Shown here: positions 16,594-64,000 of the stretch, one piece after another | Position numbering within the stretch: the stretch's first letter is position 1 | Layout: each line of letters starts with the position of its first letter | DNA from: an uncultured archaeon | Lineage (GTDB): Archaea; Aenigmatarchaeota; Aenigmatarchaeia; CG10238-14; SCSR01 | Assembly: GCA_964570195.1 (NCBI GenBank) | Contig: CAZMWU010000001.1 | Location: 7,433-71,432, forward strand | Length of the DNA: 64,000 nt | Direction of reading: 5' to 3' | The notes under the pieces: generated by a model | Database searches by the model: none | Told to the model about the DNA's origin: nothing | The model's input: only the letters and a program-made list of their open reading frames with translations | Position numbers and translations under genes: made by a program

Positions 16594-16599
16594 CATACA

Positions 16600-17295: not shown

Positions 17296-17302
17296 TTCAA
17301 TC

Positions 17303-18355: not shown

Positions 18356-18446
18356 CGTTCACTATCAAGACCTTATTTATTTAACTTTATAAATTTATTT
18401 TAATACTTTCTTAAGACAGATTTGATAATGTTTTTAATATAGCATT

Positions 18447-19985: not shown

Positions 19986-19988
19986 TTC

Positions 19989-21005: not shown

Positions 21006-21025
21006 TTAAACAACCAACCCGTTCA

Positions 21026-40403: not shown

Positions 40404-40942
40404 TTTATAAAGTTTACTATCGAACCGAAAAATTGGACGAATATCATGGAATTTATTATACTATTTCCTATCACATAGGGCAACTCTTTACCAAACCTTT
40501 CATTCTCGCCAATAAATGTGAAAACCAGACTTAGTAAATTTATCCCAACAATGAAAGACACCCCTAAAGGTCCAATTATTCCGGCTCCCAAAACACCCGA
40601 GAGCACACCTAATAAAATATATTCAGGTATCACCCATGCTAAATAAGCTCCGATGTAATAGCGTCCTACTATAAAATGGGGCAATAGAATAGCAGATGCG
40701 TATATACCGCCAACCACAGGGCCGTATACCACTCCTACGAGCATGGTCGATAATGTGACCAATTCTATCCCGATGTATTTCAACGGTTGCAAAAATCCGA
40801 GTAGTACAGCCACTAGAATAGTTGTCAGAATTATGATCAAAAAGAAGAAAACTTTCTCTAGGAATATAAGCAGTATAGCCAGTAACAAAGCTACAGATCC
40901 AATTGCATAAATTCTCCAATTCATTCTCGGTAGATTTATCAT
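40400..40942 (-). CDS. Hypothetical polytopic membrane protein.
   Basis: 180 aa with about 5 TM helices. Confidence 0.3.
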
Positions 40943-43839: not shown

Positions 43840-43857
43840 TGCTTTTTAACTTTCTAA

Positions 43858-43943
43858 TGCAGGGGGTGAGATTCGAACTCACGAAGGTACTAAACCATCG
43901 ACCCCTGAAGCCGACGCAATTGACCAGACTATGCGACCCCTGC
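43858..43943 (-). tRNA. tRNA-Leu(CAG), class II with a long variable arm. No CCA is encoded.
   Basis: Minus-strand read GCAGGGG-T-CGCA...TGCG-T-CGGCT-TTCAGGG-GTCGA-long variable arm-GTGAG-TTCGAAT-CTCAC-CCCCTGC-A. The 7-bp acceptor stem and the T arm are perfect. Anticodon CAG. Confidence 0.8.
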
Positions 43944-43957
43944 AAATCAATACGGAT

Positions 43958-48491: not shown

Positions 48492-49109
48492 TTACGGTTT
48501 TCTACCAAACAAGAAAACTATCAAAGCAAGCCCCGTCACCAGAAAAATTATCGACAATGTAGTTATGTCCAAACCACCAATCGAGCTAAATAGTTGAGTA
48601 GGTGCTATCTTTAATCCTGGAAATATCGCAGTCCCACCACTTGATATGAAGACACCAACAACTATCAATGCAACGAAAGCCAGAAGCAACCACAATACGT
48701 TGCCCTTAAAAATGTCGTTCCACATATCTGGAAGAATTCCCCCTATCATAGATACAAGAACTATCAAGACAATAAAAGTCAGAATTACTGCTACAGCTCC
48801 TCCAAAAAACTGGGCTAAAAATTGACTGAACGTTATGCCGGCAGGAGTGTAAACCATGATAAATCCAGCAGCCGTCAAAGCTACCACAACAGCAATTCCC
48901 CTTTGTTCACCAAATAATTTTGTTCTAGTCAACAGTCCAAAGAAAACAGCGAAAACTATAATAAAAGGAAGATAAAATTCAAAAACACCAATCTCCTTAA
49001 GTGTGCTTACCACATCTTGAAACCCTTGAGATAATGCAACTGAAGAAAATATCAAAACACTAAAAACAAAACCCAAACCAACTTTAGAAATATCGGCTCT
49101 CATTTTCAA
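48492..49109 (-). CDS. Paralogous polytopic membrane protein, family member 1 of 4.
   Basis: Shared N-terminal motif with its neighbours: EIG[VF]FEFYLPFIIVF...LLTRTKLFGE. Confidence 0.5.
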   Translation of the reverse strand: MKMRADISKVGLGFVFSVLIFSSVALSQGFQDVVSTLKEIGVFEFYLPFIIVFAVFFGLLTRTKLFGEQRGIAVVVALTAAGFIMVYTPAGITFSQFLAQFFGGAVAVILTFIVLIVLVSMIGGILPDMWNDIFKGNVLWLLLAFVALIVVGVFISSGGTAIFPGLKIAPTQLFSSIGGLDITTLSIIFLVTGLALIVFLFGRKP

Positions 49110-49144
49110 CTAACTCATATTTATTTTCCAAAGATTTAAACATG

Positions 49145-49684
49145 TCACTTGGCCGCTCGGACTATCACAGCTATAATTCCCACCAACGCTATCAACGCCA
49201 CCACAGACAATACCAGGTCTGATGAAAAGCTTATTCCTATTCCTTTCGGAAACAAAACTGTAGCAAGCCCACTAGAAACCAAAATCACACCCCCCACAAT
49301 CAGTGCGACAACAATAACTCCCCCCCAGAAAACCGGTGCTTTCATCCTATCACCCAAATTTTTGGCCAAATCTGGCGGGAAGAACATCCCAGCTAAAACC
49401 AATGCTATCAATACAATCAAAGATACGCTGAATCCTTGGACGAAGAATGCCGATAGCTTCGTCTCTATGTCAATCCCTAGAATTATCGGCGCAGCCCATA
49501 CGAACAAGCTGATGACAAAAGCAACAATAGCATTAACAGCGACATTCTTTTCAGGTTCCCCAAACAATTGCGCTCTTCTCAAGCCGCCATAGATTATCGC
49601 TGCCGTCAGAATGAACGGCAATAAGAAATTGAAAAATCCCAGTCCCTGCAGTTTCAATATTGCTATTTCAAAAACTGTAGGCAT
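49145..49684 (-). CDS. Paralogous polytopic membrane protein, family member 2 of 4.
   Basis: LGFFNFLLPFILTAAIIYGGLRRAQLFGE motif. Confidence 0.5.
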   Translation of the reverse strand: MPTVFEIAILKLQGLGFFNFLLPFILTAAIIYGGLRRAQLFGEPEKNVAVNAIVAFVISLFVWAAPIILGIDIETKLSAFFVQGFSVSLIVLIALVLAGMFFPPDLAKNLGDRMKAPVFWGGVIVVALIVGGVILVSSGLATVLFPKGIGISFSSDLVLSVVALIALVGIIAVIVRAAK

Positions 49685-50235
49685 TACTTGACCTCCTTAC
49701 CCATAGACATCGAGACAATCAATAATATGATAAGTATTACAAAAATAGCAACTGTTACTGTCATCAGTTCGGCAGGTACTTTAATTGCTTTGAGCAGACT
49801 TTTGAAAGGATTTCCGATAATTGAGAATAGTCCGGCAGACACAGCAAAAGCTATAGTAGCCCATACAATCCATGCAGCCGGTCCGCCGCCTTTAAAAACA
49901 TCAGGCAATTTTTCAATTATGTTCGGGTAGAAGAAACTAGCTATAAGGAATGCTACCAAAACAACCACTAAAACTATGGCGCCCTGCGTTAAAAATGCTG
50001 TCAGTGCAGGTACTATGCTTGTTCCCAAGATTACCGGTACACCGAAAACAAACATCCCGGCAACAACAGAAATGATCCCATGAATTACAACCGATTCACC
50101 AAGGACCTTTGTTTTCCTCAACACTGCATAAAGTACTGTCGTGAACAATATGAAAGGCAGTAAGAAATTATAGAATCCTATCTCAACTAGCCTCTCAACG
50201 GCAACCTGAAAGATGTTAACCATTCTATCTTTCAA
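49684..50235 (-). CDS. Paralogous polytopic membrane protein, family member 3 of 4.
   Basis: IGFYNFLLPFILFTTVLYAVLRKTKVLGE motif. Confidence 0.5.
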   Translation of the reverse strand: MKDRMVNIFQVAVERLVEIGFYNFLLPFILFTTVLYAVLRKTKVLGESVVIHGIISVVAGMFVFGVPVILGTSIVPALTAFLTQGAIVLVVVLVAFLIASFFYPNIIEKLPDVFKGGGPAAWIVWATIAFAVSAGLFSIIGNPFKSLLKAIKVPAELMTVTVAIFVILIILLIVSMSMGKEVK

Positions 50236-50268
50236 TAATTTGTTTTAGTAAAAATTTAAACATGGTAG

Positions 50269-50778
50269 TTACCTTTTGTACTTAACCCTCAAATAATCTT
50301 CGAGTTGTTTAATTTCATCATCTTTCTGTTTAAGCTGTTTAAGCAAGTCCATTTTTTTTCCTGTGCTTACAAAGACACCGCCAGAATAGTATTTCTTTAG
50401 CAACTTTGCTCTTTCTTCTGTTAAAGATTTTAATTTCTGTTCGTTACCCTGCAAACTTTTAGCTATGTTTGCACCTTTTCCGATTAATGCCCAAAAGAAC
50501 AGGACTGTAATTCCGCCCAAGGAGATAACAGTCCCAGCAACTCCTATCTGAAACAAATAAGATGCAAGGAACTGAAAAATACCACCAGGGTTTATAGCAT
50601 AAATCATTACCGTAAGTCCAAGTGAAACCAGAACGTAAACAAAAGGATTGTCACCTAAAACTTTCGTTTTTTTGATTGCAAACAGGAGCACAGTAAAAAT
50701 TATCAGAAAAGGAATCACGAAAGTTATCAACATGTTCGTTAAATTCGGTGAAAGAAGATTCTCTATGGGAAAAGCCAT
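50269..50778 (-). CDS. Paralogous membrane protein, family member 4 of 4, with a C-terminal coiled-coil tail.
   Basis: ITFVIPFLIIFTVLLFAIKKTKVLGD motif; K/E/L-rich C-terminal heptads. Confidence 0.45.
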   Translation of the reverse strand: MAFPIENLLSPNLTNMLITFVIPFLIIFTVLLFAIKKTKVLGDNPFVYVLVSLGLTVMIYAINPGGIFQFLASYLFQIGVAGTVISLGGITVLFFWALIGKGANIAKSLQGNEQKLKSLTEERAKLLKKYYSGGVFVSTGKKMDLLKQLKQKDDEIKQLEDYLRVKYKR

Positions 50779-50809: not shown

Positions 50810-51553
50810 TTAAGCGTCTCTCTTCAGTCTCTGCACCAAGTCAGTCAATGCTCTGACAGATTCTATCAATGCCGGTAACGTCTCCTTGAAAGCTTTCTCC
50901 AGGCCGCCAATTCTCGTATCGATATCACCAACACCTTCTTTGAAAATCTCTATCTTGCTTAAAATCTGCGTCTGTTCAGCATTCCTCAAATTCATTATTT
51001 CGCTTATCCTGTCGCCAACTTCCTCAATTCTTCTTTCAATCTCCTGGGCCTTGACAGAGAATTCTGTCATCTTCTGGTTTATCTCACCCATTCTCGCCTG
51101 CACAACATAGTCGACATATTCCTCAGTAGGATAATTCTGTTGGCTACCCTGGTAATATTCTTGAGGCAATGAGGTTTCTGGTAGCTGTGGTGTTTGTTGC
51201 TGTTGCTTTGGTATGATTTCCTCCAATGTAGGCAAAGCAGACTCGCTTCTAGGAGGTTCTGTCGGCATTCCTTCTGTCGGGCTGGTTGCAGCGAACTTCA
51301 AAGCTTGCGTCAATCCATTATCAATCTCTTCAGGCGAGTAGCCTTCTTTCCTCAGAACATCAATTACTTCCACTTCAGAAAAACCTCTCCCAGTCAGATC
51401 CCTCACCCTTTCAACGGGTATAGAGCCTTTTCCTTTAGCCAAAGGATTCTTCAAAAAGGGTAAAGCCATTATTCCACTATAATTAATTCCCTTTTTAATT
51501 AATATAATCCCAAGCTTTGTATACAAACATGAAGACAAGACTGGTAATCGCAA
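50810..51553 (-). CDS. Hypothetical protein with a small N-terminal helical domain, a Pro/Gln-rich linker and a C-terminal coiled coil. The likely start is the internal ATG giving MALPFLK.
   Basis: Low-complexity QQQTPQLPE linker followed by heptad-like E/R/I repeats. Confidence 0.35.
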   Translation of the reverse strand: MRLPVLSSCLYTKLGIILIKKGINYSGIMALPFLKNPLAKGKGSIPVERVRDLTGRGFSEVEVIDVLRKEGYSPEEIDNGLTQALKFAATSPTEGMPTEPPRSESALPTLEEIIPKQQQQTPQLPETSLPQEYYQGSQQNYPTEEYVDYVVQARMGEINQKMTEFSVKAQEIERRIEEVGDRISEIMNLRNAEQTQILSKIEIFKEGVGDIDTRIGGLEKAFKETLPALIESVRALTDLVQRLKRDA

Positions 51554-51939
51554 TAATTTTGTTTTTTGCTATTGTAGCGTCTTATTACTTGTCGCCGAGG
51601 CTAAGCGGCAATTCAAGTGCAGTTGATGAAAATAGAATTGTGGAAGTGGAAATGGCCATAACACACGGTGGCTATATGCCTAATAATATAACAGTAAACC
51701 TAGGAGATAAGGTCAGAATTTTAGCAATAACAACCGACCCTTCACATAGCCATGGAATAACTATCAATGAATTAAAAATTAATAAAGTAGTTTCGAAAAC
51801 ATCACCCTCTGACCCTGAAATAATAGAATTCATTGCAGGTAAATCGGGAATATTTGAAATCTATTGCAAAAGCTGTTCTGACGGTCCAATTGGTTCCCAT
51901 CCATGGTTGAAAGGTACATTGGAAATTTTATCTGATTAA
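51517..51939 (+). CDS. Small membrane-anchored or secreted cupredoxin-like beta-sandwich protein.
   Basis: N-terminal TM helix or signal; NITVNLGDKVRI...H.H...C..C....H pattern typical of the cupredoxin fold; the metal site is non-canonical. Confidence 0.35.
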   Translation: MYTNMKTRLVIAIILFFAIVASYYLSPRLSGNSSAVDENRIVEVEMAITHGGYMPNNITVNLGDKVRILAITTDPSHSHGITINELKINKVVSKTSPSDPEIIEFIAGKSGIFEIYCKSCSDGPIGSHPWLKGTLEILSD

Positions 51940-52364
51940 GTCTTTTTGTTCTTTGGGGTTCTGTAATCAAACATCTTTTCTACTTCGTCTCTTGTTACAA
52001 ACTTGGCAGTAATAGGATTTATCAAGTCTATGAAAGTCTCTATTTGTTTCAATTCCCTTTTCGTCGCAGTCTTGGACAATTCTTTGCTCAATCTTAAAAT
52101 CTCGCCTTCTATGCTCAAGAGCTTCTCCGACACAGACACAATTTTATTGTTTATTTTTTCGAGCGACAGCTTCAGGTCATTTAATTGGGTTAGCGTATTT
52201 TCTTGCAGGGACTCCAATGAACTTTCCAATCTGTCAATTCTCTGCTCTATAATTCTGATTCTTCTTGTATCTTCGTTTATTCTTTTGACGAGCTCTGTTG
52301 TTACTTTTGTAACATCTTCTTCATGCCTCTCGAAAGGCAATGTTGGTAGGGATGGTAAGGCCAT
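51936..52364 (-). CDS. Hypothetical coiled-coil protein (142 aa).
   Basis: Continuous heptad-like pattern; divergent from the pilus ATPase gene. Confidence 0.35.
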   Translation of the reverse strand: MALPSLPTLPFERHEEDVTKVTTELVKRINEDTRRIRIIEQRIDRLESSLESLQENTLTQLNDLKLSLEKINNKIVSVSEKLLSIEGEILRLSKELSKTATKRELKQIETFIDLINPITAKFVTRDEVEKMFDYRTPKNKKT

Positions 52365-52409: not shown

Positions 52410-54650
52410 TTGTTGGCTGTTGAATACGAAGTTGTCGATGGGGCTCTGAGGATAAATTGCATCAACTGGGCGATTGCCCCAAGCATAGAAGATTCCGATG
52501 CGACTATGGCAATTGTGATTGACACGCTGTTGCGAGCAAGGGATGCTGACAGGGTTGTTCTGATAGAAACTCGCGAGAACGAGTATGATGCAGAACAGAC
52601 AAAAATGCTACGCGAGATAGCAGATGCTTACAATCGGATTCTGAATATCGACAAGACAATAAGTCTGCAAAACTTTGGTCCATCACAATGCGAAAAACTT
52701 TTTCCGAAAAGATTAGCAGATTTGCAATTTTTGGTTTTAGAAATCCTGCGAAAGGATCCTATCGGCGCTTATTTGCGGACAGTTAAGATGGTAAACGCAA
52801 ACAAAGTCTTGGAAGGGACTGCTCCGTTAGAACAAAAAATTTGTTTCACACATTATTTGGACAATGCATTAATTCCAATCAAAAATATTCTTGAGGGATG
52901 CACGCTGATTCAGAAGGCTTTGCCTATTTTGCAAAATTACCAGATTGGTAGCAGGGACGTATATCGCGAAATATTTTCACCAACTGTCAGGCCCAACTTC
53001 ATGTTGACAAGATTTATGCTGGCAATTCCAAAGGGGGCGAGGATGGTTGGCAAATATTCTCTTGTTGGTGCTGAAGTCGAGATATACAAACTGCCAACAA
53101 AAGTGCGACATCTGTATCATATAACCCCGAAAGAATTTATTCTAAGTGACGAAAAATACACAATATTGGATTCTGCTAGGAGATATTTGGCTGCGCACAG
53201 ACCAACAGAAGCCGAAGCAGTCGAACCAGAAAAATCAAGGGAACTTTTTAAAAATTTGGGAAGAGATTTGGTAAGAGACGTATCAAGAAGCATGAATGTG
53301 AATTTGACCGCAGCTGAAATAGAGGAACTGGCAATAATATTGTCGAGATATACTGCAGGTTATGGTATTTTAGAGCTTTTACTATCCGACGAAAAAATTC
53401 AGGATATTTTTGTCAACGCTCCCATCGGTACAACTCCTATTTACATAAATCATTCAGATTTCGAAGAATGTGAAACAAATTTAATGCCTACGAGTGAAGA
53501 CGCAGAATCATGGGCAACAAGATTTAGATTGTATTCAGGCAGACCACTTGACGAATCTAACCCAGTTTTGGACACAGAGTTATTGGTTCCTGGTGGAAGG
53601 GCGAGAGTTGCAGCCATAACAAAAAGCCTGTCACCAGAAGGCCTTGCATTTGCATTCAGAAGACATAGAGAAAAACCATGGACTTTCCCCCTGTTCATTA
53701 AAAATAGAATGTTTGATTCTCTTTATGCAGGGTTGATGAGTTTCATTATAGATGGTGGCAGAGCTCTACTTGTTGCGGGTGGAAGAGGATCCGGAAAAAC
53801 TTCTGTTCTGAATGCCCTAATGCTAGAAATAATGCCCAAATTCAGAATCATCACAACCGAGGATACACTTGAAATTGCTGTTCCGGAAATGCGAAAGCTT
53901 GGCTTCAACATTGAAAGGATGAAATCACGTTCTGTAATTACGAAAGTAGAAACAGAGTTGCCGGCAGACGAAGCGTTAAGAACCGCATTGAGATTGGGCG
54001 ATTCCGTTTTGATTATAGGCGAGGTACGTTCTGTAGAGTCACTTGCTTTATTTGAAGCCATGAGAATTGGTGCGATGGCTAATGTAGTTGCAGGTACGAT
54101 ACATGGTGAATCTGCATACGGTGTTTATGACAGGGTTGTTCACGACCTTGGTGTCCCACCGACGAGCTTCAAAGCTTTGGATTTAATCACAATTTGTAAT
54201 CAATTAAAATCTCCAGATGGTTTGCACAAATTCAGGCGTGTAACGGAATTGACCGAAGTCAGGAAACAATGGAAAAATGATCCTTTGGATGAAGGAGGTT
54301 TTGTCAATTTAATGGAGTATTCTGCAAAGGAAGACAAGCTCAAGCCTACTGACACTTTGATTGACGGCGAGTCGCAGGTGTTGAATGAAATCGCTAGAAG
54401 AGTTAGGGAGTGGCGTGGCCAATGGGACGCCGTCTGGGACAACATTCTGTTAAGAACGAAGATAAAGGAGACAATGGTTAATTTTGCAGCCAACTTGGGC
54501 AAGGACAATATTCTTGAGGCAGAACATGTTGTTGAATCAAATGCCATGTTCCATCTTATTTCAGAGCAGGTTCGCCAAGAGGTTGGTGCACTGGATTCGA
54601 AGATGATATACGACAAATGGTTGGAGTGGTTTAAGAAAAGAATTGGTTAA
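52410..54650 (+). CDS. Type IV pilus/archaellum-type secretion ATPase (PilB/GspE/FlaI/TadA/VirB11 superfamily) with a long N-terminal extension. TTG start.
   Basis: Walker A VAGGRGSGKTSVLNAL; TTEDTLEIA; Walker B-like LIIGEVRSVE; His-box GTIHGES. Confidence 0.8.
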   Translation: MLAVEYEVVDGALRINCINWAIAPSIEDSDATMAIVIDTLLRARDADRVVLIETRENEYDAEQTKMLREIADAYNRILNIDKTISLQNFGPSQCEKLFPKRLADLQFLVLEILRKDPIGAYLRTVKMVNANKVLEGTAPLEQKICFTHYLDNALIPIKNILEGCTLIQKALPILQNYQIGSRDVYREIFSPTVRPNFMLTRFMLAIPKGARMVGKYSLVGAEVEIYKLPTKVRHLYHITPKEFILSDEKYTILDSARRYLAAHRPTEAEAVEPEKSRELFKNLGRDLVRDVSRSMNVNLTAAEIEELAIILSRYTAGYGILELLLSDEKIQDIFVNAPIGTTPIYINHSDFEECETNLMPTSEDAESWATRFRLYSGRPLDESNPVLDTELLVPGGRARVAAITKSLSPEGLAFAFRRHREKPWTFPLFIKNRMFDSLYAGLMSFIIDGGRALLVAGGRGSGKTSVLNALMLEIMPKFRIITTEDTLEIAVPEMRKLGFNIERMKSRSVITKVETELPADEALRTALRLGDSVLIIGEVRSVESLALFEAMRIGAMANVVAGTIHGESAYGVYDRVVHDLGVPPTSFKALDLITICNQLKSPDGLHKFRRVTELTEVRKQWKNDPLDEGGFVNLMEYSAKEDKLKPTDTLIDGESQVLNEIARRVREWRGQWDAVWDNILLRTKIKETMVNFAANLGKDNILEAEHVVESNAMFHLISEQVRQEVGALDSKMIYDKWLEWFKKRIG

Positions 54651-54668
54651 GGAAATCAAATAATAATT

Positions 54669-55034
54669 ATGATGAAAGGCGTAGCTATACCATATGTGAT
54701 AGCATTAATTCTTGGTGTGGTTGTGATTGGAATCCTAGGCTACTGGTTTGTTTCATATGGTGGCAGTGCGATTGGAACTGGTACACAGGCTGAATGTGAT
54801 GCATCGGATTTTAATTATTGTAAAGGATTTGTAAAAACATGGGACACAAAATGTGGAGAGCCAAATTGTGGTGAAATTAGCCCAGCAAAATGTGGCAACA
54901 CTATAAAAGAAGAAGAGGAACAGTGTGATCCACCTGGTTCTACTGAAATTAAAGATATCAAAGGTGTAGGTAAATGTACCTATAATTGTGGTGACAATTG
55001 TAAAGTTGTTAGTATATCTTGCAAGCCACCATAG
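54669..55034 (+). CDS. Pilin-like protein with a class-III signal peptide and a Cys-rich C-terminal domain (paralog 1).
   Basis: MMKG|VAIPYVIALILGVVVIG fits the [KR][GA]|hydrophobic consensus; 12 Cys in the C-terminal 75 aa. Confidence 0.55.
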   Translation: MMKGVAIPYVIALILGVVVIGILGYWFVSYGGSAIGTGTQAECDASDFNYCKGFVKTWDTKCGEPNCGEISPAKCGNTIKEEEEQCDPPGSTEIKDIKGVGKCTYNCGDNCKVVSISCKPP

Positions 55035-55065
55035 CGATTATCTTTATAAAAGCTAAATATAAATT

Positions 55066-55344
55066 ATGAAAGCAGTTGCCATACCTTATGTCATCGCACT
55101 TATTCTAGGAATAATGGTTGTTGGCATTCTTGCATACTGGCTTATTAATCAAGCTGGTAAAACAACAGCCCAAGGAGCTAGTGCAGAATGCCAAGGAAAG
55201 ATATTTTCATACTGCTTAGCATGGGATGCCCAAGGGAAGAAGTGTAGCGATGGCCAACCATCTTCTTTTGATTGGGGAAATAAATGTACTAAACCCAGTG
55301 ATTTCAAGATAGATAATTGTAAGTCCCTAGGCATTTGTACTTGA
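55066..55344 (+). CDS. Pilin-like protein with a class-III signal peptide and a Cys-rich domain (paralog 2).
   Basis: MKA|VAIPYVIALILGIMVVG N-terminus; 6 Cys. Confidence 0.55.
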   Translation: MKAVAIPYVIALILGIMVVGILAYWLINQAGKTTAQGASAECQGKIFSYCLAWDAQGKKCSDGQPSSFDWGNKCTKPSDFKIDNCKSLGICT

Positions 55345-55395
55345 GCATTTGAAGATATTTCATAAATCTTTAGTTATAGAAATCAAATAATAATT

Positions 55396-55707
55396 ATGAG
55401 AAAAGCAGTTGCCATACCTTATGTCATAGCCCTGATTATCGGAGTCGTGGTAGTCGCAGTTCTAGCTTACTGGTTTATTTCTTCTGCAGGTAAAGGTAGC
55501 AGCATCGGGACAGAGGCAGAGTGCACAGCAAGAAAGGTCGAATACTGTACCACACAAGTTACTGACGTTTGGAATAAATTTAAACAAGTCTGCGGCAATG
55601 ACGAATGGTCAAAAGCCGGATCATGCTACAATTTTTGCTCAAGCATAGTTCCGAGTTGGAAATCTACAAATAGTCAAGGTGGATCCTGTGCCCAATCCAC
55701 TCCTTAA
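55396..55707 (+). CDS. Pilin-like protein with a class-III signal peptide and a Cys-rich domain (paralog 3).
   Basis: MRKA|VAIPYVIALIIGVVVVA N-terminus; 7 Cys. The 20 nt up to and including the start codon, gaaatcaaataataattatg, are identical to those of paralog 1. Confidence 0.55.
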   Translation: MRKAVAIPYVIALIIGVVVVAVLAYWFISSAGKGSSIGTEAECTARKVEYCTTQVTDVWNKFKQVCGNDEWSKAGSCYNFCSSIVPSWKSTNSQGGSCAQSTP

Positions 55708-55773
55708 GAATCCTCGGAATGAATTAAAGAAATAAGTATAATCTTAATCTCTCCGCACGCTAAATTCTAACTA

Positions 55774-57738
55774 ATGCCAATAATTTCCCGCGAGTATGAG
55801 AAATTCCTTAGAGAGGAACAGTTAGCCAAGAAACTCACTTTCTACGAAAGATCATGCCGGTTATCAGAAAAAATTCTACCACTGTCACCACCATTTAAAG
55901 GTCTCAAAGAAAAATATAAAGAATCAATTGAATTCTCACACCTCAAGATAACACCAAAAGGTGCATTTTCCCTCTCGCTTATAACAACATTGTTAATTTT
56001 CATCGTTTCTCTAATAGCATTAGTAATATTGAATTCGTTCACTTCCTCTTCACTTATCCTCTCATCTATCCTGTCTTTAATAACATTTTACTTTTTTGTT
56101 GTCTATCCCAATCACCACGCAACTGTATTCAGAATCAATGCATCATCAGAAATGGTACTTGCAACAATCTACATGAGCATCTCAATGCATATATCACCTA
56201 ATTTGGAAAATGCGATTAAATTTGCTTCAAATAATTTGAAGGGGTCACTGTCAGTAGATTTGCGTGAATTATTGTGGGATGTGTACACTAGGAAATATGA
56301 TAAAATTGAGGATGCTTTAGATTCCTTTATTGTAAAATGGAAAAAAGACAATAAAGAGTTCGCAGAGTCGTTGTATCTTATTAAAAATTCCGGTGCAGAA
56401 TCTCAAGAAAAACGAGAAAGATTTTTGGATGAAGCAGTCTCTGTTATGTTAGATGGCACTAAAGAAAGAATGCGATTATACTCGCGCCAGCTAAAAGAAC
56501 CGGTCACAATTTTAAACGCCCTAGGGATTCTCTTGCCTATAATAGGCTTGGTTTTCTTTCCAATAATCAGTCTATTCTTGCCGGAATTAATCCAGCCTAT
56601 TTTTCTTGTAGTGGGTTATGATTTCTTTCTTCCTCTAATAGTCTTCCTTTTCATGAATAGTTATCTGGAAAAAAGACCCTACAGTTTACATCAGCCAGAT
56701 TTGAGTAAACATCCCGATTTTTCTACTGTCAAATTTTATGAAAAACCATATACTATACCACTGTTAGTTTCCTTGCCGTTGATTGCAATAGGCTTGGTTA
56801 ATATAATAGGAAAAAAGGACCTTTTTAGTTTCGGTCTACTTGTATACTCGATGTTAATCACATTAGGTTTGTTTATCGGGATTGCTACTTATTCTGCACT
56901 GTCTGTCAAAAGGAAGCTGAAAATAAGAAAAGAAATTGCAAGCATAGAAAGCGAATTCGCTGAGACATTATTTCAGTTGGGTAGCATGATACTGCGAGGA
57001 ACACCATTAGAAACAGCTTTAAGAAGAGTTAAAGAAGACATTAAGAATCTGAAAATTGCGCAATTCTTCGATAAAATATTATACAATATAGAAACATTTG
57101 GTTTGACATTCGAAAATGCTGTCTTCGACAAGACATACGGCGCAATAAATTATTATCCGTCTAATATAGTCGAATCTGCGATGCATGTAATAGTCGAGAC
57201 TTCAAAAAAAGGAATGCAAAGCGCATCCAAATCAATGATAATCATCTCCAAATACCTGAAAGATATGCATGAGGTAGAAGAAGATTTAAAAAATATGTTG
57301 GAAGAAGTGACATCAACAATGAATATACAGAGTATTCTCCTTGCTCCTTTGAGTGCAGGCGTTGTAGTCACTATTGCTGTTATAATGACGAGGCTTTTAG
57401 TTAATCTGGGGGAGACTTTAACTTCCGTTTATTCAGAGGTAGGTTCGGCTCTAGGCCCTGCTGGTGATATAGGTACAGGAGTCATATCGTCAATAGTCAA
57501 TTTAAGTGCGATCATACCAATTCACGGTTTTCAATTAATTGTTGGCGTATATATTGTTGAGATTGTGACCATTATCGCGATTACACTGAGCACAATTACA
57601 AACGGTGACGAGGGTTTAATGAAAAGGTTGACGATATCAAAACATCTCACTTACAGTTGTATCGTGTATTTCATAACTTTGTTATCCACATACTTTTTAT
57701 TCACCTCGGTTATTTCAATAGAGAAGTTAATAATCTGA
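55774..57738 (+). CDS. FlaJ/TadC/PilC-like polytopic platform protein of a type IV pilus-like system.
   Basis: 654 aa; two blocks of TM helices separated by cytoplasmic helical domains; located between the ATPase and the pilin-like genes. Confidence 0.55.
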   Translation: MPIISREYEKFLREEQLAKKLTFYERSCRLSEKILPLSPPFKGLKEKYKESIEFSHLKITPKGAFSLSLITTLLIFIVSLIALVILNSFTSSSLILSSILSLITFYFFVVYPNHHATVFRINASSEMVLATIYMSISMHISPNLENAIKFASNNLKGSLSVDLRELLWDVYTRKYDKIEDALDSFIVKWKKDNKEFAESLYLIKNSGAESQEKRERFLDEAVSVMLDGTKERMRLYSRQLKEPVTILNALGILLPIIGLVFFPIISLFLPELIQPIFLVVGYDFFLPLIVFLFMNSYLEKRPYSLHQPDLSKHPDFSTVKFYEKPYTIPLLVSLPLIAIGLVNIIGKKDLFSFGLLVYSMLITLGLFIGIATYSALSVKRKLKIRKEIASIESEFAETLFQLGSMILRGTPLETALRRVKEDIKNLKIAQFFDKILYNIETFGLTFENAVFDKTYGAINYYPSNIVESAMHVIVETSKKGMQSASKSMIIISKYLKDMHEVEEDLKNMLEEVTSTMNIQSILLAPLSAGVVVTIAVIMTRLLVNLGETLTSVYSEVGSALGPAGDIGTGVISSIVNLSAIIPIHGFQLIVGVYIVEIVTIIAITLSTITNGDEGLMKRLTISKHLTYSCIVYFITLLSTYFLFTSVISIEKLII

Positions 57739-57754
57739 AAATCAAAATTAGATT

Positions 57755-57868
57755 ATGAGGAAAGCTGTTATTTCTGTTTCTTTATGGTTTATTGTCACGC
57801 TGATCATGGTTTTAATTATTATAATGGCGGCTTTTACCATAGTGCAGAAAGGAATGTTGGTTAAATGA
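57755..57868 (+). CDS. Unannotated 37-aa micro-ORF encoding a pilin-like single-TM peptide (MRKAVISVSLWFIVTLIMVLIIIMAAFTIVQKGMLVK). It is below the length cutoff of the ORF track.
   Basis: The N-terminus MRKA|V matches the neighbouring class-III signal paralogs; ATGA overlap with the next gene. Confidence 0.3.
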   Translation: MRKAVISVSLWFIVTLIMVLIIIMAAFTIVQKGMLVK

Positions 57869-58224
57869 GAAAAGCAATCGGAATGGCATTGCAAATTTTA
57901 ATCGGGGTTATATTCATGATACTTGGTCTGATTGTTGTCTGGTCTTTTACTGAAAAGGTATCCGGATTTTCCCTTGGACTTCTTCTAGGCACAACAGCTA
58001 AAAATGCTTACTGTGGAATAGCAGGTAGTCCTGTCAAAGGAGGTATTTCGGGAGGTGCACTCGGTTTGGCTGTAGGCGGAGGTATATGTGCGGCAGGGGT
58101 GGTAGGTGCTTTCTTTACAGGGGGAATATCTCTCTCTGCTTGTGTCTTAGGTGCTAAAATAGGAGCTGGGATTGCTGTTGGGGCTGGGATAGCGGGTGCC
58201 GCATACTCGGCAACTGCATGCTAG
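57865..58224 (+). CDS. Small Gly-zipper membrane protein with a class-III-like N-terminus.
   Basis: MRKA|IGMALQILIGVIFMILG followed by GxxxG/AxxxG repeats (GGISGGALGLAVGGGICAAGVVGAFF). Confidence 0.4.
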   Translation: MRKAIGMALQILIGVIFMILGLIVVWSFTEKVSGFSLGLLLGTTAKNAYCGIAGSPVKGGISGGALGLAVGGGICAAGVVGAFFTGGISLSACVLGAKIGAGIAVGAGIAGAAYSATAC

Positions 58225-58264
58225 TAATCAAGTTATTTATCGTCTTTTAACCTAATTACAATCA

Positions 58265-59248
58265 ATGTCCAAAGCCATGGCTATTGAAGGTGTGGGAAAG
58301 ATTTTCATTATGATAGCTGTTCTTGTTGTCGGTATTGCCTTTCTGGTGAAAGCTCTAGGGATTGACCCTTTCGGATGGCTAGAAAAGAAGTTTGAGGGCA
58401 TCGATGTGCCAGAAACAGGCAAGGCCTTGCATGTTAGAATGGATGTGGATGCAAAACTTAAAGATGTATTTTCGTTCCATTTATTATCCGATAACGAAAT
58501 GCGGAAACACCATACAGATGAAGAGGGTAGTAGCTCTTATTATAGCCTATATTTTCAAATCGAATCAGATAAAGTAAAAAATCCGCTTGTCCTTGGAAAT
58601 TGTGTATTGTTAGTAACCGAGGAAGAAAAATCATCTTTTGGTATTGCTGGTGGAGCCGACAAATCTTATGTCTACTACATCAAATCCGGCACAATGATTC
58701 AAGATGATGACAAGCCCTGCCAATTTTTGGGACAATGCCTCTCTGACAAAAACTGGGATTATAAAAAATTAGTCGACAAGGGATATGGCTGTATTTCTGA
58801 TCAGGTGAGAGACGAAAATCCCAGTTGCGATAAATGTAAAAAAGCTGCAGCTCCATCTTACGATTGTATAGGTCCCTTTAGTGTTGTTAACTGTGCCGGT
58901 CAGGTTCTTCCAGGTCCCTTTGGTGATTGGCAAAAGAGTCCACCATGTGACAGCGATCACACGGTGATAAAAAATTTCGAATTCTCTGACGATATATTAA
59001 TATCCGATAGATGTGCAGAAGATGATCCAAGTGAATGCAATTTGCTAAATTATAGAGAAGTCGAAGGAAAAAGCATATTTGAAAGTAAAAGATTTATTGG
59101 CAGCAAAGTTAAATATGGCATCATCTGTGGCAATGACGGGTACTGGCATACCTGTAAACAAAACATCGAAGGAGAAGTTCCAACCCCAGATGGCACATAT
59201 ACATGTGACAGCAAGTTAGGTGGTGCAGTTTTCTATTGGAAAAAATAA
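58265..59248 (+). CDS. Secreted or membrane-anchored Cys-rich protein (327 aa) with a class-III-like N-terminus.
   Basis: MSKA|MAIEGVGKIFIMIAVLVVGIAF; about 20 Cys, including CDKCKK and CxxxC-type pairs. Confidence 0.45.
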   Translation: MSKAMAIEGVGKIFIMIAVLVVGIAFLVKALGIDPFGWLEKKFEGIDVPETGKALHVRMDVDAKLKDVFSFHLLSDNEMRKHHTDEEGSSSYYSLYFQIESDKVKNPLVLGNCVLLVTEEEKSSFGIAGGADKSYVYYIKSGTMIQDDDKPCQFLGQCLSDKNWDYKKLVDKGYGCISDQVRDENPSCDKCKKAAAPSYDCIGPFSVVNCAGQVLPGPFGDWQKSPPCDSDHTVIKNFEFSDDILISDRCAEDDPSECNLLNYREVEGKSIFESKRFIGSKVKYGIICGNDGYWHTCKQNIEGEVPTPDGTYTCDSKLGGAVFYWKK

Positions 59249-59260
59249 TCTGTGAAATAA

Positions 59261-61054
59261 ATGAGAATGCCTAGGATACCCCTGCATTTGGCATTGGCTT
59301 TAGCGCTTGGCACAGGAATAGTAGGTTATTCACTACCTAATCATTCAAGAGTTTACCAATTCTTAAGAGATACACCATCAACAGCCCGAGAATATGGTAG
59401 AGAACTGTGGGAAGCACTACCTTTCACAGAAAAAGAAGCATATCCTATAACCTCACCAGTTAGCTATACATCAACTAAGGAAGAAAAATTTACATCAATC
59501 GCACGCAGGTATTCTGGGTCATCTCCTCTGGCTATGACAAAAGATAAGAATTCAGGAGTGTTATTGCCAGGGCAAACAATAACAATAAACCCAATCACAA
59601 CTGTGATTCACGTACCTCCTGAAATATGGACGATGGCATACGGCGACCCCAGAAATGTTCCGTATATTAGAAAGATAGTGAAACGAGGCGACGAACCTGA
59701 TAAAATTTCTGTAAAAATAGAAGATGTGATTACAGGAGATTTGGGGTTGGGGCGTCCTGAAGATGTAGCCGTTGTTAGCATAATTGGACAGTTAGGTGAG
59801 AGTAGAAGCCCCTTATTATTAATCGGACGAAATGGGAAGGTGGTTTCCGTACCTTTTAGCAGGGGAGAGTATGGCAGTGGATATGTTGGGGCAATAATAA
59901 ATACAACGGATGTAACTGGCGACAATAGTCCAGAAATTATTGTTCAAGAAAGGGACATGGATTCTAATCCATGGATTCACCCAAGATTATTGCATATTTT
60001 TCGACGAAATGAAAAAGGAGATTTTCAAAACCACCCCACTTATGCAGCAGGCATTACATTAATAGAGGATGCAGACGGAAACAACATCCCTGATATATTT
60101 TCTGCTTGGTGGATACCTGCACCAGAGTTTGGTGTTAAAATCAACAGAGGACTTACATACGACCCCAAAACACTAAACATTTTAAGAACTGAATGGGTTC
60201 CAAACCCACATCCAGGAGGTTTTCTGAGCCTGACGCGAGATGAGTATAACGCACCTGAAAACATAAAAGTAGCACTGGCTACAGATTTTTTAATCAATAA
60301 CCCCAACTATCCTGAAATTTCCCGCGAGATTGAGCAGGGGCTGATAACAACATCTTCTCAATTATCTGAGATACTCAAATCATCACAACGTTCTCTTATA
60401 GATAGGATAGGATCTAATGCTTATACGCAAGCTGCAACTTTTGCAGGTAGACTAGAAATTAACAAAGGAGAAATTCTAACTTCATTGCTTTCTCCAAATC
60501 CCGAGCAAGCTATTGAGGTCGCAGAGCAGGTTCTAAGGACGTCAGACCGCCATATTATCGATTTGGCTCTTAGGGAAGCGGGGGAGGATCTTTATGTAGT
60601 CGACCTAGAAACAGATTTGGCACGACCTCTTTGGGAATATCTATCAGATGTTAGTGCGGAACGGGGTGAATTGAATGTCAGGGTTGGCGTGGAACCCCTT
60701 GCAGCATATCTTTTAACAGCATACTTGAACAATGTTGTGCCATGGGCAATCGATCAGCCGGCAGCCCTCCTTCTAACACGGGATATAGCATTGATGCCAG
60801 GAAACAGTTATGTAACAGTCAGATTAAGGCCTGACGAGAGAGGCGATTTAAAGTTATCCGGAGGATTTGAAACCGGTGAAAACGTAAGGAGATTAAATAA
60901 TGCAGTGAACTCTTATGTAATGGATAAACAACCTGAACTCGATAGATTTGAAGAGAAAATTAGGTCGGGTACTGGCATAAGGAGCATGCTGCAGACATGG
61001 GGAGAAATAGGGTTGGATACAATCGAACAACTAAGAAGACGGTTAAAAGAATAA
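59261..61054 (+). CDS. Large secreted hypothetical protein (597 aa).
   Basis: N-terminal signal-like MRMPRIPLHLALALALGTGIVG; Arg/Gly/Pro-richer composition than its neighbours. Confidence 0.4.
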   Translation: MRMPRIPLHLALALALGTGIVGYSLPNHSRVYQFLRDTPSTAREYGRELWEALPFTEKEAYPITSPVSYTSTKEEKFTSIARRYSGSSPLAMTKDKNSGVLLPGQTITINPITTVIHVPPEIWTMAYGDPRNVPYIRKIVKRGDEPDKISVKIEDVITGDLGLGRPEDVAVVSIIGQLGESRSPLLLIGRNGKVVSVPFSRGEYGSGYVGAIINTTDVTGDNSPEIIVQERDMDSNPWIHPRLLHIFRRNEKGDFQNHPTYAAGITLIEDADGNNIPDIFSAWWIPAPEFGVKINRGLTYDPKTLNILRTEWVPNPHPGGFLSLTRDEYNAPENIKVALATDFLINNPNYPEISREIEQGLITTSSQLSEILKSSQRSLIDRIGSNAYTQAATFAGRLEINKGEILTSLLSPNPEQAIEVAEQVLRTSDRHIIDLALREAGEDLYVVDLETDLARPLWEYLSDVSAERGELNVRVGVEPLAAYLLTAYLNNVVPWAIDQPAALLLTRDIALMPGNSYVTVRLRPDERGDLKLSGGFETGENVRRLNNAVNSYVMDKQPELDRFEEKIRSGTGIRSMLQTWGEIGLDTIEQLRRRLKE

Positions 61055-61102
61055 TCAACAAATTAGATATTTAAATACTCGCCAAAACAAATATAAAGTT
61101 AA

Positions 61103-61426
61103 GTGAAATTAATGAAAGCTGTCGCGGTTCCTTATATCATAGCTATTCTTCTTGGTGTTGGTGTCATCGGGTTAGTAGGTTATTGGTTATTTGTTTCCGG
61201 AGGTCAGTTCGGCGGCGGAGCCGCATCTCAACAATGCAGGACAGATTTTCTACAAACCTGCCAGAGCTGGGCGGCTGGTGGATATTTAGCAGATAACCCT
61301 GCTGATAATGGTGTTTTTAAGCACGCAGATGATAATGTTTGCATGAAGCAAGTGACAGGTAAAACCGACATGGACGATGCCACTAAAGCCATATACAGGT
61401 CTTCCTGTACAGTGGCTGGTGCTTAA
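61103..61426 (+). CDS. Pilin-like protein with a class-III signal peptide and a Cys-containing domain (paralog 4).
   Basis: MKLMKA|VAVPYIIAILLGVGVIG N-terminus. Confidence 0.5.
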   Translation: MKLMKAVAVPYIIAILLGVGVIGLVGYWLFVSGGQFGGGAASQQCRTDFLQTCQSWAAGGYLADNPADNGVFKHADDNVCMKQVTGKTDMDDATKAIYRSSCTVAGA

Positions 61427-61451
61427 TTTCTATATTTTCTAAATCTATTAT

Positions 61452-61742
61452 ATGTCCAAAGCCGTTGCAACGCAAGCTGTTTTCCTGGTGGGCGTCATCG
61501 CCATTCTATTTTTCTTCATAACCGCTATTTTCTTCGGCTGGATTAAAGGAACTAAAATAGTTACCACTCAAGCTACATGTGTAGTGAAGCAAAGGAGCTA
61601 TTGCAGTGAATGGTCTGTAGCAGGAAAGGAGCCTGACTGGTGGGGAGAAAGGGAGCCTAAGAATTGTGAGAGCGCGGACTTTCAAATAACCAAACCTAGT
61701 TGTAACGACTGTAAGAAGATATACTCTGCTATGAGATGCTAA
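61452..61742 (+). CDS. Pilin-like protein with a class-III signal peptide and a Cys-rich domain (paralog 5).
   Basis: MSKA|VATQAVFLVGVIAILFFF N-terminus; 7 Cys. Confidence 0.5.
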   Translation: MSKAVATQAVFLVGVIAILFFFITAIFFGWIKGTKIVTTQATCVVKQRSYCSEWSVAGKEPDWWGEREPKNCESADFQITKPSCNDCKKIYSAMRC

Positions 61743-61769
61743 TAATTTATCAGAAAACAAAATAATCTT

Positions 61770-62141
61770 ATGTTGAAAGGCTCCGCCGCCACAAACGCCC
61801 TTACCATTGTAGGTGTGGGACTTGTGAGCGTAATAATGTTTGCCCAAGTCCCTGACATGGTAAAAGATATAAGATTGGTTTTGTCGAAAGATTCTGTCAT
61901 AGCAAAATCGGCAGAGATAGCAGATTTGTTAACTCGCACAGCATCAGTGCCAGGGGACATCAAAATTACCCATAAACTATCCGATGAAGTTTCTTACACC
62001 ATTTCGATTAAAAACGGTTATGTAAATATCAGCACTGAAAACGATTGGGCGGTGTCAAAGACATTTTCGAATGTGGAATTCGAGTCAGAAAATGTAAAGT
62101 CACTCCTGATAACAAAAACTAGTATCATAAAGGTTGAATGA
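61770..62141 (+). CDS. Pilin-like protein (class-III-like N-terminus, no Cys-rich domain).
   Basis: MLKG|SAATNALTIVGVGLVSVIMF N-terminus. Confidence 0.4.
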   Translation: MLKGSAATNALTIVGVGLVSVIMFAQVPDMVKDIRLVLSKDSVIAKSAEIADLLTRTASVPGDIKITHKLSDEVSYTISIKNGYVNISTENDWAVSKTFSNVEFESENVKSLLITKTSIIKVE

Positions 62142-62769
62142 TATGAAAAAAGGGCAACAATCGGCAGAGATATTATTCTCAGTTACCATTGCTGTGCTTC
62201 TTGCAGGAATCCTTTTACCAGCGATTCCTCTTGGTCAAGCAACTAAAATAGCTCCAGAAGTGCAAGCCAAGGAATTTGAAAACAAGGCGATTATTTTAGC
62301 AAATTCCTTTTTGGACAATCCGGATTTAATTTATTCTGATTCTTACGGTTCTTATCATGGGATGTTCGATACAACAAATTTCGAAAATATTTTTTATGAA
62401 AGCGATTCTGATTCAGCCTTGTACACATGCAAGCCAAATCTAAGCAATTGCAAACTACCGACTTATCCAGAGACTTTCGCATTGGTGATAGTTGTTGATA
62501 TAGAAAACGATAATGGGTGGTTCACCGGTACACACAGGTTGACTGGTTCAGAGTCACAAGTTACCAATATAATTTCATGTTTCCAAAATAGAGTAACCAT
62601 AAATTATCCCGACTTGTTCAAGGCTGGCTCTTATACAGCCGAAGTTTTAGAATTAGACAATTGTAATTTACACAGATATTCGCATCTTAATTTAGTTTTT
62701 CCTGTCTCACTCAGATATTCAGACGGCAGGATTAACAAGGGCGTACTAAAAGTTCTGGTGGTCGAATGA
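62134..62769 (+). CDS. Pilin-like protein with a bacterial-type-IV-pilin-like N-terminus.
   Basis: MNDMKKG|QQSAEILFSVTIAVLLAGIL, with Gly at -1 and Glu at +5. Confidence 0.45.
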   Translation: MNDMKKGQQSAEILFSVTIAVLLAGILLPAIPLGQATKIAPEVQAKEFENKAIILANSFLDNPDLIYSDSYGSYHGMFDTTNFENIFYESDSDSALYTCKPNLSNCKLPTYPETFALVIVVDIENDNGWFTGTHRLTGSESQVTNIISCFQNRVTINYPDLFKAGSYTAEVLELDNCNLHRYSHLNLVFPVSLRYSDGRINKGVLKVLVVE

Positions 62770-63200
62770 AATCGCAATCCATACTTGACATACCTTTGAT
62801 GGGAACAATAGCAATAATAATTATTCCATTGTCTATAATACTTCCCCCCACCATAATTAAAATGACACTCGACAAAGAAATTGTATATACCTTCGAATAT
62901 GAAAAGACACAGTATACTTTACTTGCATTGCTGTCGTCTACCTATAATGGCAATCATTTATACGAAATAATCGCGAACAATATCGACAACCCCGAGAATT
63001 TAGAATTTTTAAAAGATGATATTAACAAACTTGTAGAATCCAAGTGTTATACCATCCAAGTCGGCGACGGAAACGAGTTCGCTCCTATAGTCGAGAGCGG
63101 CAGTTGCAACAAAAAATACACTTTCACTACAATAATTACACTTCCCTATAGCCCTGATTCTAAATCACGTGTAAAATTGTTGAGGATTGATGTAGGATGA
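62766..63200 (+). CDS. Small protein with an N-terminal TM helix (possible minor pilin).
   Basis: MKSQSILDIPLMGTIAIIIIPLSIIL N-terminus; ATGA-coupled in the pilin operon. Confidence 0.3.
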   Translation: MKSQSILDIPLMGTIAIIIIPLSIILPPTIIKMTLDKEIVYTFEYEKTQYTLLALLSSTYNGNHLYEIIANNIDNPENLEFLKDDINKLVESKCYTIQVGDGNEFAPIVESGSCNKKYTFTTIITLPYSPDSKSRVKLLRIDVG

Positions 63201-64000
63201 AATCGGTAGTTAACGCAGCAGTAACTGCGGTAGTAGGAGTGTTGGTTGTTATTGGAGTTACGTCACTTGCTCTTGTAAACCAATCCCATGCCTTAACAAA
63301 GGGTGTTAACGAGAGAAACATAGTCGAATCGATAAACCAAATGGAACTGATTAAAAAGGCCATCCATCAATCCGCAATAGACTCTATTTACCAGGAAGCA
63401 TACACACTTGCAAAATATGGCGGATACGGGGATTACAACGGTGAATGCGACTCAAAGCTGATAGAGGGTTACCAGATGGAATTGCCATACTGGAAAGCCT
63501 TTGGAAATAATTGTTTTCCGACACCTTCAGTAAAATTTGAATCCGAGCTGAAAGACACAATATTTGAAAAGTTCGGACAATATCTAGGTTCCATTAAAGA
63601 CAAGTTTAGTTCAGAGTTGACTATACCGAAATATCTAGGCGGGGGCAATGAGAACTGCCCTGCAAGTTACACTTATTCAAAAGAGGAAAAAACATGCATA
63701 TGCGATTTTAGCGAAGAAGAGGAAGAACTTTGTTATCTTGGCATACAATATTACACATCTGTCAAAATTTTTGACGATTTGACAATTGTCCATCTACCTG
63801 CTACCGACAAAATGAAATTCGCAAATGAGAAGTTAGAACTCACGGACGATATAACTCTGTTGAAAACAGTCAAAATACTTTTAGGGAAATTAATTGACAT
63901 CGGTGAAGAAAATTTTGTCAATAAGGATCCTGTTTCTTCTTCAATTGAAAATGCAAACCAGAAAATGAATAGTGTCGCCTATCCTGGAGCAACAAAAGAT
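63198..64000 (+). CDS. Pilin-like Cys-containing protein, 3'-truncated by the window end. It is not in the ORF track.
   Basis: ATG at 63198 and an open frame to position 64000 with no stop; N-terminus MKSVVNAAVTAVVGVLVVIGVTSLALV. Confidence 0.4.

Follow-up and report, generated by a model that had tools for sequence, protein, structure and literature searches.

A candidate type IV filament assembly locus conserved across Aenigmatarchaeota

What do a secretion ATPase and a membrane platform assemble when they are surrounded by more than 10 proteins that carry class III signals and are mostly rich in cysteine? The question is raised by a locus at the 3′ end of a 64,000-nucleotide stretch of DNA from an uncultured archaeon of the Aenigmatarchaeota (assembly GCA_964570195.1, contig CAZMWU010000001.1, positions 7,433 to 71,432; the whole stretch is hereafter called the window). 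The original prediction had proposed an adhesion pilus built from disulfide-stabilised subunits or, as a second option, a pilus-machinery-dependent export route for Cys-rich peptides. From comparative sequence analysis, the locus is best explained as a type IV filament (pilus-like) assembly locus conserved across Aenigmatarchaeota, and we regard it as a variant of the archaeal type IV filament systems particular to this lineage, not a new kind of machine. We consider it likely that the locus encodes a functional pilus-type assembly system with 12 pilin-like proteins as its substrates. Our confidence is lower as to which protein forms the shaft and as to the biological role, which is probably that of a surface filament attaching small symbiotic cells to other cells.

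The assembly machinery and its conservation

All genes named in the original prediction were found on the forward strand between positions 52410 and 64000, where it had placed them. Every substantial ORF (open reading frame) between 52410 and the end of the window lies on this one strand. Neighbours are separated by -8 to 126 bp, and some stop and start codons overlap, a tight spacing that would suit one or a few operons. The 5′ half comprises the ATPase (746 amino acids [aa]), three small proteins (P1, P2, and P3), the platform (654 aa), an ORF of 37 codons, and a 119-aa protein. These are followed in the 3′ half by proteins of 327 and 597 aa, two further small proteins (P4 and P5), proteins of 123, 211, and 144 aa, whose stop and start codons overlap, and an ORF that runs from 63197 past the window end.

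The four motifs ascribed to the ATPase (52410 to 54650) are all present (GRGSGKTS, TTEDTLEIA, IIGEVRS, and GTIHGES), and its match to PF00437 (Pfam, E = 6e-17) places it in the family of hexameric secretion ATPases. Its best NCBIfam match is FlaI (NF058587), with 132 bits against an equivalog cut-off of 550, and TadA (TIGR03819), whose cut-off is 373, reaches 123 bits; since both scores fall below their cut-offs, the ATPase is an equivalog of neither. The protein consists of a lineage-specific N-terminal module (residues ~1 to 285), a core of the FlaI/GspE2/CpaF type, and a helical C-terminal extension (672 to 745). Sequence matches in the PDB, to archaeal GspE2, CpaF, and FlaI, cover only residues ~285 to 645, and by both sequence and fold the protein groups with these pilus and archaellum ATPases. 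Among 1.84 billion proteins, the N-terminal ~285 residues have only 259 representatives, each located N-terminally on a similar ATPase, and subsystem-specific N-domains are expected in archaeal type IV filament ATPases (2026 preprint 10.64898/2026.04.22.720090). More than 120 database clusters share 63 to 91% identity with the ATPase, and nearly all the named ones are labelled Aenigmatarchaeota. Several orthologues are lengthened to 1247 to 1267 aa by inteins with a LAGLIDADG homing endonuclease (P0078, P0100, P0103, and P0109; L077:6236-9979), and ATPase-related proteins of ~1780 aa are also found among the matches of the N-terminal module.

The platform (55774 to 57738) is a single polytopic protein of the T2SSF/PilC/TadC/FlaJ superfamily with ~9 hydrophobic segments. 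PF00482 (T2SSF) is matched by 24 of 48 platform orthologues, with a best E-value of 7e-11, and a profile of the family gave a marginal match to GspF in the PDB (E = 0.64). To examine conservation, the window proteins were searched against all ORFs of 76 loci; 71 loci had been retrieved from species-representative genomes, along with others. A platform homologue follows the ATPase in 58 of these loci, and the synteny of the locus as a whole is conserved in ~70 related genomes. One distant locus (L080) carries the N-terminal ATPase module amid a different neighbourhood, and this marks the conserved arrangement as particular to Aenigmatarchaeota.

Pilin-like proteins of the locus

More than 10 class-III-signal proteins had been predicted, and we found 12. 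A strict search, which required [KR][GA] among the first 14 residues and an uncharged hydrophobic 15-mer after it, recovered 7 ORFs of the locus and none of the 60 other ORFs of the window (Fisher p = 1e-6). Four others (P5 and the 327-aa, 144-aa, and window-end proteins) carry a relaxed motif that is kept by their orthologues, and the twelfth is the 37-codon ORF, absent from the ORF list with its 50-aa minimum. The N-terminal motif is, moreover, preserved across orthologues of six otherwise unrelated families. Judged by this enrichment and conservation, the N-termini are predicted class III signals of the kind that characterizes type IV filament substrates, with a short basic leader, G/A at -1, and ~20 hydrophobic residues. 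The statement that most of these proteins are Cys-rich is correct for 7 of the 12, counting those with 4 or more Cys and a Cys content of 3.4% or higher, with two counts to be revised: P1 to P5 contain 10, 6, 6, 4, and 6 cysteines, a range of 4 to 10 instead of 4 to 12, and the 327-aa protein contains 14 instead of 21.

P1 to P5 belong to one family of ~194 database proteins, all unannotated and devoid of any Pfam domain; no Pfam or NCBIfam model covers the family, and its named members are all from Aenigmatarchaeota. In P1 (54669 to 55034, 121 aa), P2 (55066 to 55344, 92 aa), and P3 (55396 to 55707, 103 aa), the N-termini read MMKG/VAIPYVIAL, MKA/VAIPYVIAL, and MRKA/VAIPYVIAL, respectively, where the slash marks the predicted cleavage site. 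P4 (61103 to 61426, 107 aa, MKLMKA/VAVPYIIAI) is the most widely conserved protein of this type, and P5 (61452 to 61742, 96 aa, MSKA/VATQAVFLVG) represents a divergent branch. The signature of the family reads M-x(0-4)-K-[AG]/[VI]-A-[IV]-P-Y-[VI]-I-A-L...G-Y-W, followed by a Gly-rich linker, C-x7-C-x2-W, and further cysteines. Of the 114 sequences with a residue at the position concerned, 113 have A or G at -1 and 106 have K or R at -2. Conservation is concentrated in the hydrophobic helix (entropy of 0.97 bit, versus 3.0 bit in the head), which, as far as sequence can tell, is the classic pilin pattern. Cysteine counts are even in 116 of 119 family members and C-x7-C is present in 114 of 119, which argues for fully paired disulfides.

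Homologues of P1 to P4 were detected in 22 of the 76 loci, and iterated profiles raised the P/P5 family to ~40 loci. The three P-family genes that lie on long contigs are all in the same locus or its downstream module, supporting the predicted co-occurrence of the small Cys-rich proteins with the ATPase and platform.

The proposal that disulfide-stabilised subunits build a pilus was upheld only as regards the type IV filament locus, as it is not obvious that the filament consists of the Cys-rich proteins. Two very small genes with class-III-like products come directly after the platform in most related loci. The first encodes 34 to 54 aa without Cys, and its start often overlaps the platform stop codon; the second encodes 55 to 77 aa with a C-terminal Cys pair. 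Their equivalents in the window are the 37-aa ORF (57755 to 57868, MRKA/VISVSLWFIVTLIMVLIIIMAAFTIVQKGMLVK, no Cys), whose stop codon overlaps the following gene's ATG, and the 119-aa protein (57865 to 58224, MRKA/IGMALQILIG), which has a Gly/Ala-rich C-terminal extension. With the 37-aa ORF and the 55- to 77-aa family, the locus has the very short pilin-like proteins that characterize Tad and Epd systems. Their size matches that of Flp/EpdE pilins, which have no globular domain, and as candidate shaft subunits we rate these mini-pilins no lower than the Cys-rich proteins; a role as major pilin would follow from this analogy.

Four larger pilin-like proteins at the 3′ end are candidates for minor pilins and a filament tip. 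The 123-aa protein (61770 to 62141, MLKG/SAATNALTIVG, no Cys), the 211-aa protein (62134 to 62769, MNDMKKG/QQSAEILFS), and the 144-aa protein (62766 to 63200, MKSQ/SILDIPLMG, MKGQ in orthologues) are candidate minor pilins, found in 18, 23, and 23 loci, respectively. The fourth is a large Cys-rich protein of >267 aa cut by the window end (63197 to 64000), a candidate tip adhesin or effector carrier. With iterated profiles, the four genes are co-linear in 18 to 23 loci, and each protein keeps an MKG-type N-terminus. Orthologues of the 144-aa protein are fused to a GH5 cellulase (L002:19924-22083) or to CARDB (L001:19260-20006). Orthologues of the large terminal protein measure 300 to 930 aa, contain up to 47 Cys, and in two lineages combine SLT with Peptidase_C39_2 (L035:12811-15594) or with Amidase_2 (L051:18334-20610). 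No recognised domain was found in the first 267 aa of the window copy. The murein-lytic domains on this tip candidate hint at partners with murein walls. A literature search returned nothing specific on Cys-rich pilins or on pilus-linked wall hydrolases in DPANN archaea. Upstream of this set, the Cys-rich 327-aa protein (58265 to 59248) has a pilin-like N-terminus (MSKA/MAIEG) and orthologues of 334 to 826 aa in the closest clade only, one of which carries a beta/gamma-crystallin domain (L002:14901-17378).

Competing explanations, proposed assembly, and flanking genes

Several observations weigh against a type IV filament locus. The window platform scores 17.8 bits against PF00482 (E = 3e-3), below the gathering score of 25.2, and an internal duplication of the platform was not significant (hhalign, E = 0.29). 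Of 31 loci that are non-redundant and extend 9 kb or more beyond the ATPase on its downstream side, 21 were found to have the P family, and the other 10 are among the more divergent ones. Heads of archaeal pilins are usually beta-sandwiches. In the AF2 model of P4, of moderate confidence (pLDDT of 71.5), a short helix (residues 11 to 33) and a flexible Gly linker lead to an all-alpha, three-helix head, and the model had no fold match in the PDB (best E = 3.2), so that no solved pilin was matched. An all-helical head, unusual among archaeal pilins, has a precedent in a Gram-positive type IV pilus (PMC10710030). Finally, no prepilin peptidase was found in the 64-kb window or in the 76 related neighbourhoods (~1 Mb). 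The window was screened by GxGD motif and number of transmembrane segments, and then with Pfam on all polytopic proteins. These proved to be an LPG synthase, a GT4, a PMT_2, two STT3 proteins, a MatE-like flippase, and an M50 peptidase, and a protein with six transmembrane segments and no family (40400 to 40942) was rejected for its lack of a catalytic Asp motif. Archaeal prepilin peptidases are commonly encoded away from the pilus locus. Two nanoarchaea without one were also reported by Makarova 2016 (PMC4858521).

Enzyme domains on pilin-like proteins would also be at home in a bindosome-like or pseudopilus-like structure, short and membrane-proximal, that presents class-III-signal proteins such as Cys-rich binders and hydrolases without building a long pilus. 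In relatives, SLT, Amidase_2, C39-like, and GH5 domains all occur on proteins with pilin-like N-termini, the Gly linker of the P4 model would tether its head flexibly, and the 2026 preprint proposes functionalised type IV filament machineries that carry class-III-signal proteins. We nevertheless regard such a display as unlikely. The ATPase does match BasE (NF053672), but with only 60 bits against a cut-off of 1000, no locus protein has a substrate-binding-protein domain, and Flp-sized mini-pilins together with a four-gene set resembling minor pilins are typical of true pili.

The missing peptidase would also suit N-termini that are uncleaved signal anchors, the small Cys-rich proteins then being single-pass surface proteins merely syntenic with a pilus machine, and the P4 model does resemble a transmembrane helix, a linker, and a small ectodomain. 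However, a near-invariant A/G at -1, K/R at -2, and an always very short leader are unexpected for anchors, conservation is much stronger in the helix than in the head, and the linkage to ATPase and platform is strict, all of which makes this explanation quite improbable. Still less credit can be given to the second option of the original prediction, in which Cys-rich peptides leave through the pilus machinery to act in soluble form as toxins or signals. The products are indeed small, variable, disulfide-rich, and present in several paralogous copies, but class III cleavage would leave a hydrophobic segment of ~25 residues that holds them in a membrane or filament, conservation points to no second processing site, and the 597-aa protein that might have served as cargo is an orphan. 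A reduced archaellum, implied by Li et al. 2021 (PMC8407114) through the FlaG/FlaI/FlaJ "archaellum" genes listed in most Aenigmarchaeota metagenome-assembled genomes (MAGs), by FlaI as the best NCBIfam match, and by weak FlaC_arch matches in coiled-coil proteins, can practically be dismissed, given the FlaI score far below its equivalog cut-off, the absence of an archaellin family match in any locus protein or 92 orthologues and of an ArlH/KaiC-like gene in the locus or syntenic loci, and the restriction of FlaC_arch to 8 of 49 and 4 of 56 members of the two coiled-coil families, all below the gathering score. The original prediction that this is not a canonical archaellum is thus borne out, and the listing of these genes in the literature as a "partial archaellum" is corrected.

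Three outcomes had been named beforehand as counting against the prediction, namely, an ATPase clustering outside pilus and archaellum ATPases, N-termini predicted and observed as uncleaved anchors, and homologues of the small proteins always found apart from the ATPase/platform pair. Instead, the ATPase groups with its pilus and archaellum counterparts, the N-termini are predicted to be cleaved, and the small proteins co-occur with the pair.

If the locus does assemble a type IV filament, the 12 pilin-like proteins would insert in the membrane through their N-terminal hydrophobic helix, and a PibD/FlaK-type peptidase encoded elsewhere would cut the 3- to 7-residue leader after K/R-G/A. The hexameric ATPase, acting on the single platform, would then pull subunits from the membrane and stack their helices into a filament, with two coiled-coil proteins probably positioning or regulating the ATPase. 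The shaft could consist of the two post-platform mini-pilins, of Flp/EpdE size, or of small proteins of the P4/P5 type, whose extracellular heads would be stapled by paired cysteines. The 123/211/144/>267-aa set may form a priming or tip complex, whose largest member would bear a variable host-contact module, a Cys-rich adhesin here and wall-lytic enzymes in some relatives. Such a filament could serve an episymbiotic DPANN archaeon for attachment to, and possibly breaching of, its partner cell.

A more specific version of the filament reading can be put forward only tentatively, as it is possible yet rather doubtful. The locus would represent a DPANN-specific subtype of type IV filaments, a host-contact or breaching pilus with a shaft of mini-pilins and/or all-alpha disulfide-stapled pilins, assembly controlled by the two coiled-coil proteins, and a four-protein tip whose largest member is an exchangeable module, namely, a Cys-rich adhesin, or else a lytic transglycosylase with an amidase, a C39-like peptidase, or a GH5 glycosidase. 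If this is true, the murein-lytic tips of some lineages would imply that some Aenigmatarchaeota attack murein-walled cells, that is, bacterial hosts, and variable enzyme-bearing tip proteins could hint at the type of host. To our knowledge, no member of the Aenigmatarchaeota has been cultivated so far. A locus conserved across the phylum is an obvious candidate for the attachment apparatus of Aenigmatarchaeota, and the signature K-[AG]/VAIPY...GYW...C-x7-C-x2-W can be used to mine metagenomes and metaproteomes for the P family.

The original prediction had recognised no archaellum accessory genes (FlaC-H-like). As a statement on accessory genes in general this does not hold, as two divergently transcribed coiled-coil genes are the most constant neighbours of the ATPase. 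The gene for cc142 (51936 to 52364, - strand; 142 aa) lies directly upstream of the ATPase in 72 of the 76 loci, separated from the ATPase start in the window by a 45-bp spacer, and encodes a cytoplasmic coiled-coil protein whose conserved motif, NPITSKFVTKDE, is C-terminal. The gene for cc247 (50810 to 51553, - strand), present in 65 of 76 loci, encodes a small three-helix N-domain, a P/Q-rich linker, and a coiled coil; its true start is probably the MALPF at 51469. Alignments show that both are conserved families. Against Pfam, NCBIfam, and the PDB they give only generic coiled-coil matches, including weak and inconsistent ones of cc247 to FlaC_arch, RecX_HTH1, and DUF7310 and weak coiled-coil matches to DUF7310 in 15 of 49 cc247 and 10 of 56 cc142 members. 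We considered FlaC/D/E and arCOG07564 as possible homologues, but matches at the level of coiled-coil noise do not justify such a name. A secreted cupredoxin-like protein (PF13473, E = 5e-8; 51517 to 51939, + strand) is encoded between cc142 and cc247, a position it has in only 3 of the 76 loci. Further upstream lie the genes for four paralogous polytopic membrane proteins (48492 to 50778, - strand; 169 to 205 aa, 21 to 40% identical), which are possibly associated with the locus. They share the motif F-x-LPFIL...L-[RK]-[KR]-[TA]-[KQ]-[VL]-[LF]-G-[DE] and belong to no Pfam family, and homologues of three of the four occur in 36 of the 76 loci, on the same side upstream.

Within the operon, a 597-aa secreted protein had been described, and such a protein is indeed encoded there (59261 to 61054, no Cys), with a Sec-like or anchor-like N-terminus, MRMPRIPLHLALALALG, that is not of class III. 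As a conserved cargo it was rejected. It has no homologue in the 76 loci, no Pfam match, and no relatives among 5.8e9 proteins, the only database match being a partial copy of itself, and a LysM-like stretch noticed by eye was unsupported by Pfam. The gene is probably a strain-specific insertion and not a core part, as far as its distribution indicates. At its position, close relatives carry an MNT/HEPN pair (NTP_transf_2 and HEPN; L001:16990-17942 and L077:14222-15284), so the operon interior seems to tolerate insertions. A PIN/MazE pair lies upstream in L002. In a public MAG with HYS80 tags, a 2.6-kb contig ends inside the 597-aa gene (partial HYS80_00165), and other pieces of the locus are on separate short contigs; these breaks suggest strain heterogeneity in the region 59261 to 61054.

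Elsewhere in the window, a glycosylation cluster (13962 to 22636 and 35774 to 37912) encodes two STT3/AglB-type and two PMT_2 proteins, a GT4, a MatE/Polysacc_synt flippase-like protein, and an LPG_synthase_TM protein, and could modify the pilins. ARAGORN identified a tRNA-Leu(CAG) (43857 to 43944, - strand), and an Rfam scan of the window at the gathering threshold returned no family.

Comparison with known systems

Novelty had been overrated in the original prediction, as published work precedes it. Makarova et al. 2019 (PMC6393860) described islands in DPANN genomes where FlaI and TadC are accompanied by "dark matter" proteins with signal peptides, which they read as pilins, almost all type IV pilus components of Thermoproteales have multiple conserved cysteines thought to form disulfides (PMC4858521; 2026 preprint), and the Aenigmarchaeota genes themselves had been listed (PMC8407114). 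With the archaeal type IV pili and filaments classified by Makarova, Koonin & Albers 2016 and Sivabalasarma & Albers 2026, the locus shares an ATPase of the FlaI/GspE2 clade, a platform of the TadC/FlaJ type, and several class-III-signal proteins encoded in a row, and with these systems and the DPANN dark-matter islands it also has in common a subsystem-specific ATPase N-domain and pilins too divergent for family models. It is set apart by its conserved divergent pair of coiled-coil genes and by the P family, with a predicted all-alpha, disulfide-stapled head where a beta-sandwich is usual. System 1 and DPANN subsystem 4A are described with two platform genes, whereas the locus and its relatives have one.

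Among Tad/Flp and Epd systems, TadA/CpaF proteins are the next-best relatives of the locus ATPase, and a set of larger minor pilins is common to both sides. The 34- to 77-aa pilin-like ORFs after the platform are another likeness, in size and not through an established Flp motif, and Flp-sized archaeal mini-pilins are relevant to the proposal that Tad pili originated in archaea. In contrast, these systems have TadB plus TadC or two Epd platforms, and a dedicated peptidase (TadV/EppA) that the locus does not encode. With one platform gene instead of two and an ATPase that is no TadA equivalog, the locus is therefore not a System 1/Tad system, and its BasE score likewise sets it apart from a bindosome.

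The Kil Tad pilus of Myxococcus, in which interchangeable minor-pilin "Tips" carry variable domains (PMC12075869), offers a functional likeness only. In both cases, a short major pilin would be combined with complexes of minor pilins that display variable domains for cell contact, and the largest pilin-like protein of related loci swaps Cys-rich, SLT plus amidase, SLT plus C39-like, and other modules. The locus differs in having no partner of the T3SS-star kind (T3SS, type III secretion system), and the tip candidate of the window is incomplete and has no recognised domain. Multiple conserved cysteines across components are shared with subclades 4D/4E of Thermoproteales (Pyrobaculum and Vulcanisaeta), which differ in lineage, in being hyperthermophiles, and in their pilin families (arCOG03739/03740, with an extra C-terminal domain); no homology was detected between these pilins and the P family. 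An intracellular coiled-coil accessory protein (arCOG07564) is part of halobacterial subclade 4F, whose ATPases were also reported in nanoarchaea in which pilins could not be identified (PMC4858521). A coiled-coil component is common to 4F and the locus, the matches being weak and generic, and the Cys-rich N-domain of 4F ATPases is absent from the locus ATPase, which has 6 Cys in 746 aa. Taken together, the new elements of the Aenigmatarchaeota locus are a pilin family, mini-pilins, coiled-coil partners, and, in relatives, enzyme-bearing tip candidates, and they extend the published picture of archaeal type IV filaments without overturning it.

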